Counted from the stretch's first letter, positions 1 to 14,997 are shown. The stretch is 64,000 nt of DNA from Chloroflexota bacterium (GCA_016190895.1 JACPPR010000030.1:241-64240), one strand, 5' to 3'. A program made the numbers and translations. Notes: generated by a model from the sequence alone, not told the origin.

Positions 1-530
1 ACTCCCGGGCTGGCTATCAGGCAGTGAATCACCCGTAGCTCGGTCTCGCCGCACACCTTCAACTTTGAGTCCAGCAGCAGGTCGTACGAGCGGCTGATAC
101 TGCCCTCCAGCGAATTCTCGATAGGCACGATGCCGGTGCTGGCTTCGCCCTGCTCGACAGCCCGGAAAACATCATCCAGGCTTTCACAGGGTTTGACCTG
201 GATGGCGGGGCCGAAATATTGGAAGGCGGCCTCTTCACTGTAGGCGCCGCGTTCCCCCTGGAAAGCGACTATCGTGCCTTCCGCGCTCTTGGCCAGGCTG
301 ATTATTTGCCGGTAGATTTTCTCTACGGCGTCCTGGCTGATGCCTTCTTCCTGAGCGATTTCACGGACGTGTTTCAGGACGGCCTGCTCGCGGGCGCCGT
401 CCTCGATTGGCTTGCCCTGCTTGTGCTTTTCCTCCCCGATTTCCTGGGCGATTTTGACTCGCTCGGCAATTGCCCTGACAATCTCGTGGTCGACATCGTC
501 TATTTTTCCGCGTAGTTCCTCCAGGCTCAT
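1..530 (-). CDS. pheA: Chorismate mutase / prephenate dehydratase (P-protein), N-terminal part; gene continues past window start
   Basis: Not in the ORF track because no stop lies inside the window. Manual minus-strand translation from ATG 530-528 gives [36 protein letters not shown]... (chorismate mutase helix), then ...[23 protein letters not shown] (prephenate dehydratase start). ATGA overlap with the aroC stop. The + ORF 219-515 is its antisense shadow. Confidence 0.8.
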
Positions 531-1618
531 CTTATCACCTCCGGAATCAGTCCTGCCCTCATGGCGAAATCGCACAGGGTGACAGCCATCATCGCTTCCA
601 CCACGGGCACGGCTCGGGGTACGATGCAGGCATCGTGTCTGCCCTTAACTTCGAGGCTGGCGTTTTGCGTGCTTCTCAGGTCAACCGTCTCCTGTTTGCT
701 GGCGATGGAGGGGGTCGGCTTGACGGCAACTCTGAGCGTTAGAGGCATGCCATTGCTGATTCCGCCGAGGATGCCGCCGGAATTATTGGTGGCGGTCACT
801 ATTTTGCCATCCCTGACGGTGAACGGGTCGTTATTTTCTGAGCCTTTCTTGCTCGCGGCTGAGAACCCCGCCCCGAACTCCACCCCTTTAACCGCCGGCA
901 CAGCGAAGAGGGCTTTGGCTAAATCCCCTTCGAGCGTGTCCATTACAGGCTCCCCCAGCCCGGCAGGTATGTTGAGGGCGAAGCCTTCGATAACGCCGCC
1001 GAGGCTATCGCTCGACTCTCTGGCTTGCTCGATTAGCCTTAGCATCTCTTTGGCAGCTTCAGGGTCGGCGCACTTCAGCGGGTCTTTTTCGACATTTTTC
1101 CAGATTTCATCAAGCTCTTTCGACTGTGCCCTGACCCCGCCGATTTCAATGGTGTGGGCAAGAATTTCAACGCCGATGTGTTTGAGAAGTTGTTTGGCCA
1201 CCGCTCCCGCCATCACGAATGTAGCCGTAATTCTGCCGGAGAATCTGCCCCCGCCCCGGAAATCGTTGAAGCCGCCGTACTTGACGAAGGCGGTGTAATC
1301 CGCGTGCCCCGGCCTCGGTATGAAGCGGATGCGCTCGTAGGCGCTGGAATCGGCGTCCCGGTTCCAGGTCAAGAGGCAGACGGGCGCGCCGGTGGTGCGG
1401 CCGTTGAAAATGCCGGAGAGAATTTCCACCTTGTCTTCTTCGGCGCGGGTGGTCGATGCCACGCTGCCTCCCGGTCTACGCTTATCAACCTCTTTCTGGA
1501 TATCTTCGAGCGTGATGGGCAATCCGGCCGGGCAGCCATCGATAACCACGCCGACGCACCGCCCGTGGCTCTCCCCGAAGCTTGTCATCGTGAACAGTTT
1601 TCCTAGGCTATTTGCCAT
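527..1618 (-). CDS. aroC: Chorismate synthase
   Basis: 363-aa ORF with [28 protein letters not shown] and GGGRFSGR motifs; operon context. Confidence 0.95.
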
Positions 1619-2870
1619 CTAACTTCACCTCCCCGCCGATGCTTTTCAGGGTACCCCAGTATTCCGGATAGGTCTTCGAAACACATTCGGCGTCTTGAAT
1701 TACGGTGCCGCCTGTCACCACGCCCAGCAGGCTAAAAGCCATAGCGATGCGGTGGTCGCCGCGCGTGTCAATTTCGGCGCCTTTTACGCGCGAACCTGTT
1801 ATGGTCAATTTGTTTTCTTCTTCTACGACCTTGATGCCCATTTTTGTCAGGCCTTCGGCAAGGGCGGAGGGGCGGTCGGATTCTTTGATGCGTGCCCGGG
1901 CGATGCCGGTGAGTTCGCTCGTTCCTTCCGCCGCCGCGGCCAGGACAGCTACCGTCGGCAGCAGGTCAGTGCAATCGGTCAGGTCGGCTTTGAGCGCCTT
2001 GAGTTTCGACTTATGGACTATGACCGAGTCATTCTTGATTATAATGTCAGCCCCCATATCTCTCAGGAAATCGGCGATTGCCTTGTCTCCCTGCAGACTG
2101 GCGGGGTTCAGGTTGGTTACCTCTATTTCGCCGCCCAGCGCCCCCGCCGCCAGCAGGTAGGAGGCTGAAGACCAATCGCCTTCGACAAGATACTTCGCCG
2201 GCTTGTAGCTTTGTTTCTTAATCTTATATTCGCGGAAATCAGGGGAAGCCTCGACTTTGATGCCGAACTTCTCTAGGCTCTCGATTGTCATCTGGACGTA
2301 AGGCTGTGATTCTAGGTGGGTGGTCAGCCTGATGGTCATACTCTCTTCGGCAAAGGGCGAGATGAGCAGCAACGCGGAGACGTACTGGGAGCTGATGTTG
2401 CCAGGCAATTCTGTAGTGCCCCCCCTCAGCCTCCCGCCCCGGACCACGATGGTCTTATCTGCTTCCTGTTTACAATCGATGCCCAGTTGCTGCATTGCCT
2501 GGATGAGCGGGTCGATGGGCCGGCGGGCGAGGGAGGGGGCGGCGGTGAGGTGACAGCGCCCCGGGATGAGCGCGCAGATGGCGGTCATAAACCTGAGCGT
2601 CACGGCGGATTCGCGGCAGAAGAGGTCACCCGAAGGCGCATTGAAATTGCCCCCGCCCACCCGCCAGCCATCTTCGTCTTCGGTGACGCTGACGCCAATC
2701 TTGCCCAACACATCCCTGGCGGCTTCGGTGTCATCTGAGCCGAGGGGATTAACTATCCGGCTTTCGCCCTTAGCCAGGGCGGCGCAAAGCACCCCGCGAA
2801 GCGTGTAGCTTTTGGAGGGCGGGGCGCTTACCCTGCCTTTTATGTCACTTTTTGAAATCGAAGCTTTCAT
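1608..2870 (-). CDS. aroA: 3-phosphoshikimate 1-carboxyvinyltransferase (EPSP synthase)
   Basis: 420-aa ORF with [32 protein letters not shown] and GDHRIAMAF; 11-nt overlap with aroC. Confidence 0.95.
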
Positions 2871-3402
2871 TCTCTTTCAGCCCGGCTATTATTTCTTCAA
2901 CCACGCCCTCGATGTCCAGTTTCGAGGTGTTAATCATAATATCTGCGGAGCGCTCGTAATATGGTTTCCTGAATTGTAGCATATCTTTGATTGTTTGCAG
3001 CGGGTCTTTCACATCGAGCAGCGGACGCTGCCCCTGCTGAAGCGCCGTCCGCTTCAGGATTGTTTGCGCCGAGGCCGTCAGGCAGACTATCACGCCGCGC
3101 TCTCTGAGGCGGTCGATGTTTATCTTGTTAAGAACAACGCCTCCGCCGCAGGCAATCACGGCGTTCTTTTCCATAGCGATTTGCCTCACGGCTTCTATTT
3201 CAAGCTCCCTGAAGGCTATCTCGCCGTCCTCACGGAAAACTTCAGGTATCTTCTTGCCGGCGAGCTGCTCGATAAGCCAGTCCACCTCGAAGAACCGCAT
3301 ATCCAGTTTCTCAGCCAGCCGCCTGCCGACGGCCGTCTTGCCGGTGCCCATGTAGCCTATGAGGGCGATGTTGGTTTTCAATCTGAAATCCCTCTCATCC
3401 AT
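2845..3402 (-). CDS. aroK: Shikimate kinase
   Basis: The track ORF 2845-3564 is inflated at its N-terminus by read-through of an intergenic repeat. Start placed at ATG 3402 (MDERDFRLKTNIALIGYMGTGKTAVGRRLA, Walker A). Overlaps the aroA start by 26 nt. Confidence 0.88.
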   Translation of the reverse strand: MDERDFRLKTNIALIGYMGTGKTAVGRRLAEKLDMRFFEVDWLIEQLAGKKIPEVFREDGEIAFRELEIEAVRQIAMEKNAVIACGGGVVLNKINIDRLRERGVIVCLTASAQTILKRTALQQGQRPLLDVKDPLQTIKDMLQFRKPYYERSADIMINTSKLDIEGVVEEIIAGLKENESFDFKK

Positions 3403-3410
3403 ATCCAGGG

Positions 3411-3491
3411 AAAATCCCTCTGTATCTCTCTTTACGAAAGGGAGAGGCCGGGGCTCTCCCCCTTTGTCAAAGGGGGATAAAAGGGGGATTT
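3411..3491. mobile_element. MITE-like repeat family 1 (TIR AAATCCCYC / GRGGGATTT, internal CCCTTTnnnAAAGGG hairpins), copy a
   Basis: Fills the aroE-aroK spacer. Hairpins at 3427-47 and 3456-78. Confidence 0.8.
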
Positions 3492-3494
3492 GGT

Positions 3495-4358
3495 TTAGGA
3501 ATCTCCCAGAAGCTTTAATGCCTCCGCCTTCATCAACTCCACCGGCGCTTTCTGTCCGGTCCACTTTTCAAAAGCCAAAGCTCCCTGCCAGACGAGCATA
3601 TCGAGGCCGCTGATGGTCTTGCAGCCGGCGGCTTCTGCTTCCCGCAAGAGCCTGGTCTTGACCGGATTATAGACAATGTCATAGACGACTAGCCCCGGTT
3701 TCAGCAACTCGGCGGGCACCGGCGTTTCATCAGATTTCGGACTCATGCCAACCGGTGTGGCGTTGACCAGAATTTCGGTTTTCGCCAAAGTTTTCGCGAG
3801 GTTCCCCGGCGAAAGCTCTAAAGCGGCTACTGAGCTACCGAAAGTCTGCGAAATCCGGTCGGCTAAGTCCTTCGCCCTGTCTTGCTGGCGGTTAAGGATT
3901 ATCAGATTAGCTCCGCGCTCAGCCAGGATGAACGATATGCCTCTCGACGCCCCACCCGCCCCCACCAGCGCGACATTGTTCCCCTTCGGCTCGATGCCAG
4001 ATTCCAGCAACGGCTGGAGAAAGCCGGTGGCGTCTGTATTGTAGCCGGTCAAGACTCCATCATCATTGACGATGGTGTTGGCCGCGCCGATTTTCTCAGC
4101 CAGTGGGTCGAGCCTGTTCAGCAGCTTCATAACAGCCACCTTGTGCGGGATGGTGACATTCAGCCCCCTCATATTCAAAGCCCGCATTCCGGCAATGGCC
4201 TTATCAAGCTCTGTTCCTTTTACCCTGAAGGAGACGTAGACATAGTCCAGCCCGAGCTTCGCGAAGGCGGCGTTGTGCATCGCCGGGGACATCGTGTGCT
4301 CGACCGGGTCGCCGATGAGGCCACAGACCCTCGTTTTACCTGAGATGTTGGTTGTCAT
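3495..4358 (-). CDS. aroE: Shikimate dehydrogenase
   Basis: 287 aa with GLIGDPVEHTMSPAMHNAAF, GYNTDATGF and VGAGGASRG. Confidence 0.93.
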   Translation of the reverse strand: MTTNISGKTRVCGLIGDPVEHTMSPAMHNAAFAKLGLDYVYVSFRVKGTELDKAIAGMRALNMRGLNVTIPHKVAVMKLLNRLDPLAEKIGAANTIVNDDGVLTGYNTDATGFLQPLLESGIEPKGNNVALVGAGGASRGISFILAERGANLIILNRQQDRAKDLADRISQTFGSSVAALELSPGNLAKTLAKTEILVNATPVGMSPKSDETPVPAELLKPGLVVYDIVYNPVKTRLLREAEAAGCKTISGLDMLVWQGALAFEKWTGQKAPVELMKAEALKLLGDS

Positions 4359-5092
4359 TTTCTAACCTTGTCTATAATCGCGATATATTGGGAATCGTTA
4401 TGGTCAATGTATCTACCGACCTGCCATCCCGTCCCATCGAGAATATTTTCCATTTCCTTTTTTGAGACCATAAGGTAGTCGAACCACGGTCCGATATATT
4501 GCTTGTACCTCACTCTAATTCTTATTTGTCCGGACATCCGGCCTTTCCTCCGGTTCGATTCCTGGTAGGCCAGGTGTTCGGGGTTTTCCGTCCGGTAAAC
4601 GTCACGGCTCGAAGTGATTATTCTCCCGTTCTTGGAGGTTATCTTATCGAGTTTCTTTAGCAGCCGTTTTGCGCCCTCGAAACTACCGAACAGCCCGAAG
4701 TTATTGCCCATCATGAGAACTGTATCAAAAATGCCCATCCTGGAGCTTATCTGACTTATAGGTATTATCCTGGCGTCTTTCACTCCCCTCAGTTTACAGA
4801 CCTCGATTGCCAGAGGGGAATTATCTATCGCTGTAACCTCCAGTCCTTTCTCCTGAAGATAGAGAGAACATCTGCCGGCACCTGAGCCTATGTCCAGGGC
4901 TCTACCCCGAGCATATCTCATCGCTTTTCTCTCAGAAGGCACCCAGCCTTTGTATTCGCTAAAGTATGCTTTGGGCCCGCCCGATGTATCAATGTATCTA
5001 TCATCTTTTTCGATGATTTCCGCAGTATCTATCCGTCCTCTAAAATAATCATATACTCCATGCCCAAAGGCATCCTGTTGGTTTGTTAACAT
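4355..5092 (-). CDS. Class I SAM-dependent methyltransferase (substrate unknown) embedded in the shikimate operon
   Basis: 245 aa; motif I ALDIGSGAGR, post-I EVTAIDNS; 4-nt overlap with the aroE start; visibly AT-richer than flanking genes. Confidence 0.75.
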   Translation of the reverse strand: MLTNQQDAFGHGVYDYFRGRIDTAEIIEKDDRYIDTSGGPKAYFSEYKGWVPSERKAMRYARGRALDIGSGAGRCSLYLQEKGLEVTAIDNSPLAIEVCKLRGVKDARIIPISQISSRMGIFDTVLMMGNNFGLFGSFEGAKRLLKKLDKITSKNGRIITSSRDVYRTENPEHLAYQESNRRKGRMSGQIRIRVRYKQYIGPWFDYLMVSKKEMENILDGTGWQVGRYIDHNDSQYIAIIDKVRK

Positions 5093-5135
5093 CTTTTGTC
5101 TCCAAGTTGAAGTCGTTTTCCGCCATTACTGATAG

Positions 5136-5792
5136 TCACGGCGATATCATCCCGTATATTTCTGTCAGTTCTTTTACCGTTATCTGCCCAGGGGCGGATT
5201 CTTTGCCACGCTCGATGGAGGCGTAGGTGAAGTCGGCGCCGGCGAGCGGGCTGAGCACACGGCTGATTCGCCCCTCCTGCCCCATAGCGAAAGAGACTAT
5301 CTTGTTCTCCCGAAACTCGGAGACCAAACGAAGCACCGCCAGGTTATCTTCGAATGCTCTGGCCGTGGTAACTACTTTACAGATATCGGCACCGGCTTTT
5401 AGCTGCTTCTGGACTATCCCCTTCAGTTCTTCGAAGGGCGGCGTTTTCTCCAGGTCGTGGAAGGAAAGGATGCACTTTGCCCGCTTCTTGACCATCGGGA
5501 CGATATTTTCGAGGTTCTTTGTCCTGAGTTCGATATCCACGAACGCGGCCCCAAGCTCGATAGCCAGCAGCAGCGACTCGATGCGCCGTGCTTCGGTGCC
5601 CTGCCATTTACCCCCCTCATCGGGTGTCCGGTTGGTGGCAATCCAGGGCTTCTTCAGTTGCCTGGCCAGCTCTTGCCAGCCGTCGCCAATCATGTCTATT
5701 CGGACCTCGAAGAGGTCGGCTAGAGGCTCGACCTCCTTGACGGCCTTAAGGTCGGTATTGACTATAGCGGCGCAGATTCTTGGTTTATCCAC
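5136..5792 (-). CDS. aroD: 3-dehydroquinate dehydratase, type I
   Basis: 218 aa with FEVRIDM, ILSFHD and VSFAMG context; 8-nt overlap with the aroB stop. Confidence 0.88.
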   Translation of the reverse strand: MDKPRICAAIVNTDLKAVKEVEPLADLFEVRIDMIGDGWQELARQLKKPWIATNRTPDEGGKWQGTEARRIESLLLAIELGAAFVDIELRTKNLENIVPMVKKRAKCILSFHDLEKTPPFEELKGIVQKQLKAGADICKVVTTARAFEDNLAVLRLVSEFRENKIVSFAMGQEGRISRVLSPLAGADFTYASIERGKESAPGQITVKELTEIYGMISP

Positions 5793-6891
5793 TCGTGGTG
5801 ACCTCAGTGGAACCCTTCCAGTCCCTCAGAACCTCTTCTACCAGAGACGGATTTACTTCGTCAGTAATGAGTACCTCACCTATCTTTTTCGGCAGGACGA
5901 ACTTTATCTTGCCCGCGACAATCTTCTTATCGTGCTGCATTGCCTGCATCAGCGCTTTTGCGGGCAGGGAGGGGATGTGGGTGGGCAGGCCGGCGGCGGC
6001 GATGACTGTTTCTAGTCGGTCTAGCTCTTTTGTGCTTAGCTTGCCCAGCCGGTTCGAGATATCTGCCTCAGCCAGCATACCGATGGCAACCGCCTCACCG
6101 TGCCAAATTTTTAGCCCCGAGACCGATTCAATGGCGTGCCCGACAGTATGGCCGTAGTTCAGGATATTTCTCAGCCCGAGGTCAAGCTCGTCTTTCTCCA
6201 CCACTCCGGCTTTGATTGCCGCCGAGCGGGCGACAACTTTTTCCAGCACAGGCTCATCGAGCGCTCGTATTTTAGCCAGGTTCTTCTCAAGATAGCTGAA
6301 AAACTCGCCATCCAGGATTACCCCATGTTTGATTATCTCGGATAGTCCGTCGCTAAGCTCCCGTTTAGACAGGGTTTTCAGGGTGCTGACATCGGAGATG
6401 GTCAGGCGCGGGTGATAGAAAGCCCCGACCATATTCTTCAGCTTGCCGTGATTCACGGCTGTTTTCCCGCCGATGCTGCTGTCCCCCTGTGAGAGCAGGG
6501 TGGTCGGTATTTGTATCAAGGGCACCCCCCGCATATAGGTAGCGGCGACAAAGCCGGTGAGGTCGCCGATGACCCCGCCCCCCAGCGCGAGAATAGGCGT
6601 GTTCCTTTCGGCAAAGAAGTCGGTCAGCTGGTAGTAGAGCCGGCCCGCCGTCTCCAGTGATTTCTGCTCTTCCCCCGGAGGAACATCGATAAGGAGCGCC
6701 TCGAAGCCGCTATCAGTAAGGCTCTGCTTAAGAGCATCGCCGTAGAGTGTCTTCACTCTGGAATCGGTGATGATAACCGCTTTGCCGGTGAAGCCCAGTT
6801 CTCGCAATCGGGCGCCGGTCTGGGACAGCAAACCCGACCCGATAATGATATCGTAGCTATTACGGCTGAGTTTTACAGAGACTTTTTCCAT
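5785..6891 (-). CDS. aroB: 3-dehydroquinate synthase
   Basis: 368 aa with GGGVIGDLTGFVAATYMRGVPLIQIPTT and NYGHTVGHAIE. Confidence 0.94.
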   Translation of the reverse strand: MEKVSVKLSRNSYDIIIGSGLLSQTGARLRELGFTGKAVIITDSRVKTLYGDALKQSLTDSGFEALLIDVPPGEEQKSLETAGRLYYQLTDFFAERNTPILALGGGVIGDLTGFVAATYMRGVPLIQIPTTLLSQGDSSIGGKTAVNHGKLKNMVGAFYHPRLTISDVSTLKTLSKRELSDGLSEIIKHGVILDGEFFSYLEKNLAKIRALDEPVLEKVVARSAAIKAGVVEKDELDLGLRNILNYGHTVGHAIESVSGLKIWHGEAVAIGMLAEADISNRLGKLSTKELDRLETVIAAAGLPTHIPSLPAKALMQAMQHDKKIVAGKIKFVLPKKIGEVLITDEVNPSLVEEVLRDWKGSTEVTTSG

Positions 6892-6932
6892 CCGATTTTA
6901 CCCTGCGTCCATATTATATACTATTCAGCCCT

Positions 6933-6963
6933 AAACGAAAGAACCCTCCGTCTGGGAGGGTTC
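6933..6963 (-). terminator. Intrinsic terminator (attenuator) between the aro leader peptide and aroB
   Basis: Minus strand: GAACCCTCC-cagac-GGAGGGTTC followed by TTTCGTTT; 41 nt upstream of the aroB ATG. Confidence 0.55.
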
Positions 6964-6992
6964 TTTAACTTTTTCAAATCACTGGCTGTCCT

Positions 6993-7082
6993 TTAGCTCA
7001 AAACCTCCCCCGCGGCACATAGCAGTGCCGTAAACGAGAAATAGGTAGTATACATTTTGGGGGCGGCAATTTGAGCTAACAT
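6993..7082 (-). CDS. Candidate aromatic (Tyr/Phe-rich) leader peptide of the aro operon
   Basis: Below the ORF-track size cutoff; read manually. SD AAGGAA lies 6 nt before the ATG. Product is 29 aa, MLAQIAAPKMYTTYFSFTALLCAAGEVLS, with 2 Tyr + 2 Phe codons within 7 codons. It is embedded in alternative-pairing segments upstream of a terminator. Confidence 0.45.
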   Translation of the reverse strand: MLAQIAAPKMYTTYFSFTALLCAAGEVLS

Positions 7083-7105
7083 GGCATTTCCTTAATGTTA
7101 CGTTT

Positions 7106-7134
7106 AATCTAACATAACGCTCTGGCCTTGTCAA
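7106..7134 (-). promoter_or_regulatory. Sigma70-like promoter for the aro leader/operon
   Basis: Minus strand: TTGACA (7134-7129), 17-nt spacer ending in TGT, then TAGATT (7111-7106). Confidence 0.5.
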
Positions 7135-7349
7135 ACCACGCGGAGGCAACTTCTCCATAGTAATAAATTAGGTAGGTTTACGTATTTTGTTATGGGTTCA
7201 AACGCCATAAGATTGGATTATCTCCCTTTCGGCCAAAGTTTACACTGACCCTGAACTTGGGGAAGGGGAACGTGCTCAGGGCAAGCCCTTTCTTTGCAGC
7301 GTAAGTCCGCTGGTAGGGGGAAATAGTACTGAAGAAGGAGGAAACAAAG

Positions 7350-7796
7350 ATGGCCCCACAAGTTTCAGAAATCAGCATTGTTGTTATGGTGCGAGAGTTT
7401 GTGGCCGCATGGAACAAACATGACCTGGAGGCCTTGGCCGATTTTTACTCGGAAAAAATTGTGCGAGAAGGTCGGCATGCCCGGCTGGAGGGGAAAGACG
7501 CATTGAAAAAGTCCTGGGAGCGGGTGCTGCGCGCCTTTCCCGACCTATCTGTCGATTACAGCCATCAATTCGCGGTCGGTACTCACGGGGTGCTTGAGTG
7601 GGTTATGCGGGGTACACATACTGGCACGTATGAGGCGTATACAGGCAATATTTTGCCAACCGGAAAACGGGTAGAGTGGACAGGAGTATCTATCTGGGAG
7701 ACGGACAAGCACGGACTCATAATCCGGGAGCGAATTTACCCGGATACGGCCGGTCTTCTAGAGCAACTGGGTGTCTTGAAGAAAGCGGGCGCTTAG
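7350..7796 (+). CDS. SnoaL-like / ester cyclase family protein
   Basis: 148 aa with FVAAWNKHDLEALADFYS and PTGKRVEWTGVSIWE; strong SD GAAGGAGG upstream. Confidence 0.7.
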   Translation: MAPQVSEISIVVMVREFVAAWNKHDLEALADFYSEKIVREGRHARLEGKDALKKSWERVLRAFPDLSVDYSHQFAVGTHGVLEWVMRGTHTGTYEAYTGNILPTGKRVEWTGVSIWETDKHGLIIRERIYPDTAGLLEQLGVLKKAGA

Positions 7797-14482: not shown

Positions 14483-14842
14483 TTGCCAAGAGTAAAAAGG
14501 GGCGTTACAGCCCGTCACCGACATGCGAAGATACTGGAGCTAACCAAGGGCCACCGGGCGACCAAACATAGCCTGTATCGCCGCGCCCATGAATCGATGC
14601 TTAAGTCATTGAGCTATGCCTTCGCTCATCGCCGCGAGCGCAAGGGCGATATGAGGCGTCTCTGGATAACCCGGGTCAATGCCGCCAGCCGGGCTAACGG
14701 ACTTACCTACGGTCAATTCATCGAAGGTCTGAAGAAGTCAGGCATCGAGGTTAACCGCAAGATGTTGGCCGATATGGCCGTCAGGGAACCTGCAGCCTTC
14801 GCCAGCCTGGTTACTACGGCTAAAGCTAAAGTAGAGGCATAA
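14483..14842 (+). CDS. rplT: 50S ribosomal protein L20
   Basis: [18 protein letters not shown]...; TTG start after SD AAGGAG. Confidence 0.95.
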
Positions 14843-14901
14843 TGCTGAATATGAAAGTCTCCCTCCGATTTAAGACGAACTTCATGTTTACGGAGCGCTG
14901 A
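14842..14901 (+). CDS. Candidate pheM-like Phe leader peptide
   Basis: Read manually. The ATG overlaps the rplT stop (TAATG); SD-like AGAGG at 14833-37. Product is 19 aa, [19 protein letters not shown], with 3 Phe in 7 codons. It occupies the same position as E. coli pheM. Confidence 0.45.
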   Translation: MLNMKVSLRFKTNFMFTER

Positions 14902-14972
14902 GGCGCTTGGGGGAGGCTTTGACACGGTAAATTAGCTCTTTAAGACTGAATATCCGAAAAAATAATTGCCAG

Positions 14973-14997
14973 AACCCTCCCAACGGAGGGTTTTTTG
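14973..14997 (+). terminator. Intrinsic terminator 25 nt upstream of the pheS ATG
   Basis: AACCCTCC-caac-GGAGGGTT followed by a T-run. Confidence 0.7.

Follow-up and report, generated by a model that had tools for sequence, protein, structure and literature searches.

In a 64,000-nt stretch of DNA from a Chloroflexota bacterium of the Dehalococcoidales (GCA_016190895.1 JACPPR010000030.1:241-64240; the whole stretch is referred to here as the window), the minus strand upstream of aroB, the first gene of a putative aroB-to-pheA operon, very probably encodes a ribosome-mediated leader-peptide transcription attenuator, which would sense charged tRNA-Tyr and tRNA-Phe and control read-through into aroB. 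An attenuator of this kind had been proposed in a first-pass annotation, and the coordinates of its promoter, Shine-Dalgarno (SD) sequence, 29-codon small open reading frame (sORF), Tyr/Phe codons, four complementary segments and terminator were confirmed base for base. The anatomy and its conservation, the translation-type conservation of the sORF, the agreement of its codon choice with the downstream gene and the covariation in the helix between segments 1 and 2 (1:2) and in an inner hairpin are directly observed.

The promoter (7106–7134, minus strand) is composed of a −35 box TTGACA at 7134–7129, a 17-nt spacer with TGT at 7114–7112 and a −10 box TAGATT at 7111–7106; it is the top sigma-70-like match in the first 9 kb of the window, with 10 of 12 consensus positions plus the TG motif. 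An SD sequence AAGGAA (7088–7093) lies 5 nt ahead of the ATG (7082) of the sORF (6993–7082), which comprises 29 codons and a TAA (6995–6993) and encodes the peptide MLAQIAAPKMYTTYFSFTALLCAAGEVLS. Its regulatory codon cluster at 7032–7052, TAT ACT ACC TAT TTC TCG TTT, reads YTTYFSF, with Tyr codons starting at 7052 and 7043 and Phe codons at 7040 and 7034. A rough estimate of the chance of four aromatic codons in seven within a random 29-codon ORF is about 0.03, so that the cluster alone, without relatives, is only weakly significant, and the comparative data are what settles whether it is meaningful. A second frame of the same leader (7020–7057, minus strand) is also aromatic, NVYYLFLVY; it differs from the reading frame kept in relatives and has no ATG, GTG or TTG between the predicted transcription start and its aromatic codons. 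Directly 3′ of the SD sequence, a three-codon mini-ORF, ATG CCA TGT TAG (7076–7087, minus strand), overlaps the sORF start out of frame, at an SD spacing too short for efficient use.

Segment 1 (7076–7059) belongs to the 5′ strand of helix P1 (7059–7079), UUAGCUCAAA-uu-GCC-g-CCCCC. It is followed by the codon cluster, by the inner hairpin P2 (7013–7030, CGGCAC-ugcuau-GUGCCG) and by segment 2 (7011–6996, within a strand spanning 6993–7011), GGGGG-a-GGU-UUUGAGCUAA, whose last codon is the sORF stop TAA, and which can pair either with segment 1 or, through GGGAGG, with segment 3. An A-rich spacer of 29 nt (6964–6992) separates segment 2 from segment 3 (GAACCCTCC, 6963–6955), after which come the loop CAGAC, segment 4 (GGAGGGTTC, 6949–6941) and TTTCGTTT (6940–6933). 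Segments 3 and 4 form the intrinsic terminator (6933–6966), AAAGAACCCUCC-cagac-GGAGGGUUCUUU followed by CGUUU, a G+C-rich hairpin of 9–12 bp with an interrupted U-tract. The leader, 6933–7099 (167 nt), folds at −60.9 kcal/mol (z = −4.86), and none of 200 shuffled sequences is as stable. Its minimum-energy structure contains the 1:2 helix (10 + 3 + 5 bp; −29.1 kcal/mol as a duplex), enclosing the small hairpin, and the terminator (−18.7 kcal/mol). The hairpin cannot terminate a preceding gene, since the upstream gene, on the plus strand, starts at 7350 and 6892–7349 is a divergent intergenic region in which no upstream gene ends.

Leaders in related genomes were located through the AroB protein, without any RNA pattern. 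Five loci from Dehalococcoidales genomes (L002, L004, L005, L007 and L017) carry promoter, sORF, segment 2 and terminator directly upstream of aroB. All five share the promoter TTGACA-N12-TTATG(T/C)TA(G/A)AnT, a GGGAGGYTT segment (GGGGGGTTTT in L005) and the terminator AACCCTCY...RGAGGGTT, and their sORFs contain the Tyr/Phe clusters KYTCFIF, EYYSCFKF, CYNFYFAF, SYYFTFSY and FYSYYKF. A full-length alignment (A1) of these five loci and two leader copies of the window served as the covariance model R1; it replaced a trimmed MAFFT alignment (A2), in which segment 1 was out of register between sequences. Across these seven seed leaders the gap between GGGAGGYU and AACCCUC is 39–67 nt. R1 also matched upstream of a DAHP (3-deoxy-D-arabino-heptulosonate 7-phosphate) synthase gene that precedes aroB in six loci, strongly in L003 and L008 (86.8 and 59.6 bits) and weakly in four of Dehalococcoidaceae type (23.5–34.5 bits, the weakest at E = 0.014). 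These four leaders (L009 1715–1890, L010 34–208, L012 751–917 and L013 1221–1396) have 11–12 aromatic codons each, in a strongly aromatic peptide such as MISQKFNAYYYFYYYFFWRSSAGEGFV. Their terminator differs, AGCCCT-CCCCAGA-AGGGCT followed by a T-run; in three of the four, the minimum-energy fold includes a strong antiterminator of 9–10 bp (GGGGAGGGCU paired to AGCCCUCCCC), and no obvious segment 1 was found in any of them. The Dehalococcoidaceae-type leaders may thus work as a simpler three-segment attenuator. In other Dehalococcoidaceae loci (L011, L014–L016 and L026) aroB is adjoined by a promoter only, with no leader; there, a conserved promoter-like element TTGCAT...GGTAAAAT ends about 8 nt before the aroB ATG, which suggests that these aroB mRNAs would be leaderless or nearly so.

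The second copy within the window lies on the plus strand at 14842–14996, between rplT and pheS-pheT, in the gene order thrS-infC-rplT-leader-pheS-pheT. It scores 140.4 bits with R1, compared to 126 bits for the aroB leader, and its layout is the same: segment 1 (14854–14865), hairpin, segment 2 (14909–14920) and a terminator (14972–14996) GAACCCTCC-caac-GGAGGGTTTTTT. Its sORF (14842–14901), whose ATG shares bases with the rplT stop (TAATG), contains three Phe codons and no Tyr codon. Two occurrences of the terminator motif were counted in the window, where 0.02 are expected by chance, and the covariance model detected no further leaders in the 64 kb beyond these two copies, even with filters off.

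A scan of metagenomes with the pattern GGGAGGYT-N38-68-AACCCTCY-N3-9-AGGGTT, which does not include the sORF, retrieved at least 120 loci, of which at least 76 are family members by R1 among the matches listed; four family loci have two leaders, the additional one departing from the scan pattern in three of them. The remaining matches were considered as versions with non-aromatic codons and were rejected as chance matches, except for L136, an aromatic member. Although the pattern ignored it, an aromatic sORF is present in every complete family member. An ORF in the frame of a conserved TTT was found in 79 of 84 distinct sequences; separate ORF scans add four of the other five, and the fifth is cut by the contig end. 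In-frame stops occur in none of the 79 sequences, versus 54 and 33 of them in the other two frames, and the distance from the ATG to the TTT takes six values from 42 to 57 nt, all multiples of three as the frame requires. Aromatic positions swap among TAT, TAC, TTT and TTC while the intervening codons vary freely, and aromatic codons make up 52% of the central region in frame, versus 10% and 18.5% in the other frames. The conserved peptide ends, IASQ and CAWEVL, are segments 1 and 2 read as codons. The first-pass annotation had called for an alignment of orthologous leaders, and the one obtained does contain aromatic codons in a conserved frame together with compensatory changes in the 1:2 helix and the inner hairpin.

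Genes downstream of the leaders were identified by Pfam and NCBIfam, and the codon identity of a leader tracks the function of the gene that follows it. Per leader, the cluster region contains on average 3.0 Phe, no Tyr and 0.2 Trp codons before pheS (n = 13) and 2.3 Phe, 1.8 Tyr and 0.1 Trp before aroB (n = 11); the corresponding means are 2.0, 3.4 and 0.6 before DAHP synthase with a ferredoxin-like domain (n = 32) and 2.2, 2.0 and 1.4 before PF04392 ABC substrate-binding proteins (n = 5). Ribosome stalling predicts just such a specificity, which a ligand-binding RNA would hardly explain. Paired genes of family III CoA-transferases, with one leader each, were observed in L050 (619–793 and 2095–2271), L083 (3454–3632 and 2029–2204) and L126. 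In these pairs, which represent two contig types, one leader is Tyr-rich (YYYAYYF or YYYYYYF), and in the cluster of its partner Tyr codons are absent and Phe codons number three or four (SLFTSFTF, SLFFADFVF), which suggests that one enzyme of a pair could act on Tyr-related and the other on Phe-related substrates. Genes for octopine-dehydrogenase-like, metallo-beta-lactamase, HMGL-like and PF04392 substrate-binding proteins have such leaders as well. The scaffold common to the family is a CCUCCC segment 1, an inner hairpin, a GGGAGGYUU segment 2 and the terminator AACCCUCC/GGAGGGUU. In the DAHP-synthase-type leaders of L094, L090, L076, L053, L031 and L003, a conserved CUAAAAUGG shortly 3′ of the terminator is complementary to the terminator U-tract CCAUUUUAG, and the two can form a further hairpin.

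Structure is conserved along with the frame. In the alignment of the 84 sequences (A3), which was fitted to the model and so leans towards the structure, 83.6% of cells are paired, versus 41–60% with slid partners; both sides change in 21 of 30 pairs, and none of 500 shuffles reaches the observed values. The P1 core is paired in 85–96% of cases. One of its pairs, whose segment 2 base was left free in the search pattern, is G-C in 41 sequences, A-U in 16, G-U in 16 and A-C in 5 (Fisher p = 2e-4, not corrected for phylogeny). Both partners vary in all six modelled pairs of the inner hairpin. In the terminator, which the search pattern fixed, only the top pair, left free by the pattern, varies; it is CG in 66, UA in 7 and UG in 4 sequences. 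In most members the sORF stop stands either 17 nt after the start of GGGAGG or 8–10 nt before it. The first position is found in 8 of 11 aroB-type leaders, including that of the window, and in 19 of 32 DAHP-synthase-type leaders; leaders of the pheS type have their stop in the loop of the inner hairpin, 8–10 nt before GGGAGG.

Taken as an attenuator, the leader would operate as follows, where we infer the start of transcription, the stalling geometry, the coupling of transcription to translation and the antiterminator formed by segments 2 and 3 (2:3). Transcription would start at about 7099, and the 29-codon sORF would be translated while RNA polymerase proceeds. When Tyr and Phe are plentiful, the ribosome would reach the TAA at the 3′ end of segment 2 and, as this stop lies 17 nt after the start of GGGAGG, would cover segment 2; after its release, segment 1 could re-pair with segment 2. 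Whether covered or paired in this way, segment 2 would leave segment 3 free for segment 4, and the terminator at 6966–6933 would stop transcription. A shortage of charged tRNA-Tyr or tRNA-Phe would stall the ribosome at codons 11–17, between segments 1 and 2; the free GGGAGG of segment 2 would then pair with the emerging CCUCCC of segment 3, the terminator would be pre-empted and read-through would follow. It had been claimed that a ribosome stalled anywhere in the cluster covers segment 1, and this holds for the Tyr codons only: with Tyr-11 in the A site and a footprint of 12–15 nt upstream of the P site, positions 7059 to 7067–7070 would be covered, masking the G+C-rich 3′ half of segment 1, GCCGCCCCC. 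A ribosome that stalls with its A site at Phe-15 or Phe-17 would leave segment 1 uncovered and, standing within the 47-nt loop of the 1:2 helix, would presumably block 1:2 pairing sterically.

Several points weigh against this interpretation. The window leader has only four regulatory codons, fewer than pheL or hisL; its terminator U-tract is interrupted, reading UUUCGUUU, and a simple terminator scan called a site on the opposite strand only and none on the minus strand. Moreover, the shuffle and Fisher statistics overstate significance for related sequences, and the transcription start site, pausing and transcription-translation coupling are assumed for Dehalococcoidia. The 2:3 complementarity that the first-pass annotation had pointed out, GGGAGG/CCUCCC plus flanking pairs, does exist and is compatible in 96.6% of cells across the family; yet no covariation was found in it, both strands being invariant and partly fixed by the search pattern, and its −16.0 kcal/mol falls short of the stability of the 1:2 helix and of the terminator. 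When a 27-nt ribosome footprint was forced to be unpaired, the terminator and the lower 1:2 stem were kept and the antiterminator never formed; in this computation the energy model lets 1:2 close around the masked bases and cannot take account of how bulky a ribosome is, so the outcome neither supports nor excludes attenuation. An indirect argument for 2:3 is that segments 1–4 are nearly fixed, even in the genome set that was independent of the pattern, while the inner hairpin drifts, as expected if each segment has two partners. On balance, we lean moderately towards a specific 2:3 antiterminator pairing.

A further point against control by attenuation lies between the terminator and aroB, where a conserved box AATAGTATATAAT (6913–6925, minus strand; its TATAAT-like part at 6918–6913) may be the −10 element of a second promoter or a protein-binding site. 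A box (T)AATRGTATATAAT occupies the same place in 10 of 11 aroB-type leaders (those of the window, L002, L004, L005, L007, L017, L057, L068, L118 and L144), and similar RGTATAKAAT boxes stand just ahead of the SD sequence of some DAHP synthase genes. If it is a promoter, attenuation would tune only part of the transcription of the operon. Carried further, the leader could be an independent small transcription unit, a micropeptide gene or a small RNA with its own terminator, aroB being transcribed from the box with no regulatory link between the two; the variable distance of the box to the aroB ATG is what a promoter element would show. Nonetheless, neither a −35 element nor a TG motif, both of which the upstream promoter has, could be recognised at the box, and most leaders of pheS, DAHP synthase and other genes lack the box and end 30–150 nt before the gene. 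Codon identity follows the function of the downstream gene, and the conservation of the non-aromatic part of the peptide follows the RNA helices (IASQ in segment 1, CAWEVL in segment 2), neither of which fits a stand-alone unit. We consider such a unit very improbable.

Slightly less probable still is direct sensing of a ligand, a protein or uncharged tRNA by a structured RNA, such as a riboswitch, a T-box-like element or a protein-binding leader, the reading frame being incidental. T-boxes are in use among Chloroflexi. The covarying 1:2 helix and inner hairpin and the conserved terminator would suit such an RNA, and many riboswitch classes have been reported in Chloroflexi (PMC3766115). Yet no Rfam family was found in the 64-kb window at gathering thresholds, and no T-box match in 6700–7500, even at E up to 10. 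Besides, the region between the helices is conserved by codon and not by nucleotide, its frame being kept across indels with no in-frame stops and with synonymous and Tyr/Phe swaps, and the positions of ATG and stop are conserved. The Phe_leader family of Rfam (RF01859), the top match at E up to 10, was rejected: it scored 24.7 bits (E = 0.11) against a threshold of 55, and 23.1 bits on the opposite strand, a terminator-driven match. An equally faint chance is given to an effect of the leader ORF mainly on downstream translation (through reinitiation or coupling) or on the stability of the mRNA, and not on transcription termination: a role of leader ORFs in increasing translation downstream has been proposed (PMC4833913) and the TAATG overlap with rplT suggests translational coupling at the pheS leader, but about 100 nt separate the sORF stop from aroB, with a strong hairpin and a U-tract in this interval, and leaders of the family repeatedly show a G+C-rich hairpin with a U-rich tail behind it.

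The operon that the attenuator would govern begins with aroB (5785–6891, minus strand; 3-dehydroquinate synthase, TIGR01357, 383.7 bits), whose closest proteins, at no more than 75% identity, come from metagenome-assembled Dehalococcoidales (Chloroflexota) genomes. The rest (1–5792, minus strand) comprises aroD, an S-adenosylmethionine (SAM)-methyltransferase-like gene, aroE, aroK, aroA, aroC and the start of a pheA-like gene; the latter, cut by the window edge, reads as a chorismate mutase/prephenate dehydratase by our reading of its translation rather than by a profile search. The genes from aroB to pheA overlap or lie at most 43 nt apart, from which we infer that the attenuator would control the whole operon; this earlier claim is left plausible on gene spacing and is qualified by the possible second promoter. 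The SAM-dependent methyltransferase-like gene between aroD and aroE (4355–5092, minus strand) has weak TehB-like matches only. The longest aroK ORF (2845–3564, minus strand) overlaps aroE by 70 nt, with its shikimate kinase domain starting from about residue 63, and the true start is probably further downstream. No DAHP synthase gene was found in the 64-kb window.

The mechanism is a known one, textbook ribosome-mediated attenuation, and the conceptual gain is modest. The leader would share with E. coli pheL-pheA the four-segment logic and the control of a chorismate mutase/prephenate dehydratase, here apparently the last gene of the operon. In pheL a run of Phe codons lies within segment 1; here, four Tyr/Phe codons stand between segments 1 and 2 and eight genes follow downstream. 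Similarly, the alternatives 1:2, 2:3 and 3:4 and a stop placed so that the terminating ribosome covers segment 2 would be those of E. coli trpL. There, the Trp codons lie within segment 1, with little distance between segments 2 and 3, whereas here the codons are in the 47-nt loop of 1:2, segment 2 is preceded by an additional hairpin and segment 3 follows it after a spacer of 29 nt. As in the Firmicutes T-box leaders of aromatic genes and pheS, induction of genes for aromatic biosynthesis, transport and tRNA synthetases would occur at low charged tRNA and one scaffold would be reprogrammed by codon change; T-boxes bind uncharged tRNA directly and need no translation, and no T-box match was found here. 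The second copy of the window, with its Phe-only codons before pheS-pheT, resembles E. coli pheM-pheST, and its gene order is that found around pheM. This comparison concerns the paralogous copy, by context and codons, and not the aroB locus, and the sORF start overlaps the rplT stop here. Attenuation control of pheST is cited in PMC11802643 and PMC1262725. The closest tested functional analogue is the aroR leader peptide of Corynebacterium glutamicum (Phe-Tyr-Phe), which acts by ribosome stalling upstream of the aroF (DAHP synthase) operon and was reported to respond to Phe and not to Tyr, according to PMC11802643, citing Neshat et al. 2014. The likeness, mixed Phe/Tyr codons ahead of common-pathway aromatic genes, is functional only: aroR is a single locus of Actinomycetota, whereas the leader studied here belongs to a scaffold family spread over several operons.

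The first-pass annotation had also held that such attenuation was undescribed in this kind of organism, and indeed no description of leader-peptide attenuation in Chloroflexi or Dehalococcoidia was found in the open full-text literature, subscription-only papers being outside the search. In a 2013 comparative survey of cis-regulatory RNA regulons, with Chloroflexi among the groups examined, those for His, Leu, Thr and Trp were the only Rfam attenuators considered; the survey suggested a possible gamma-proteobacterial origin for the amino-acid attenuator motifs that Rfam then contained (PMC3766115). The locus belongs to a sizeable family of leaders, apparently undescribed so far. Probably, these leaders are a paralogous attenuator family of Dehalococcoidia, in which one RNA scaffold ahead of at least nine kinds of genes has been reprogrammed by swaps of Tyr, Phe and Trp codons to form an aromatic amino-acid regulon. 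If this is true, the regulon would take in enzymes and transport proteins not known in aromatic metabolism, namely family III CoA-transferases, octopine-dehydrogenase-like, metallo-beta-lactamase-fold and HMGL-like proteins and PF04392 ABC substrate-binding proteins. The alignment could seed a new RNA family model. The mechanism would then extend to an entire aromatic regulon in the Dehalococcoidia, which are largely uncultured, and the codon content of a leader would serve as a functional label for its downstream gene, so that predictions open to testing could be made for enzymes and transporters that lack annotation in unculturable organisms.

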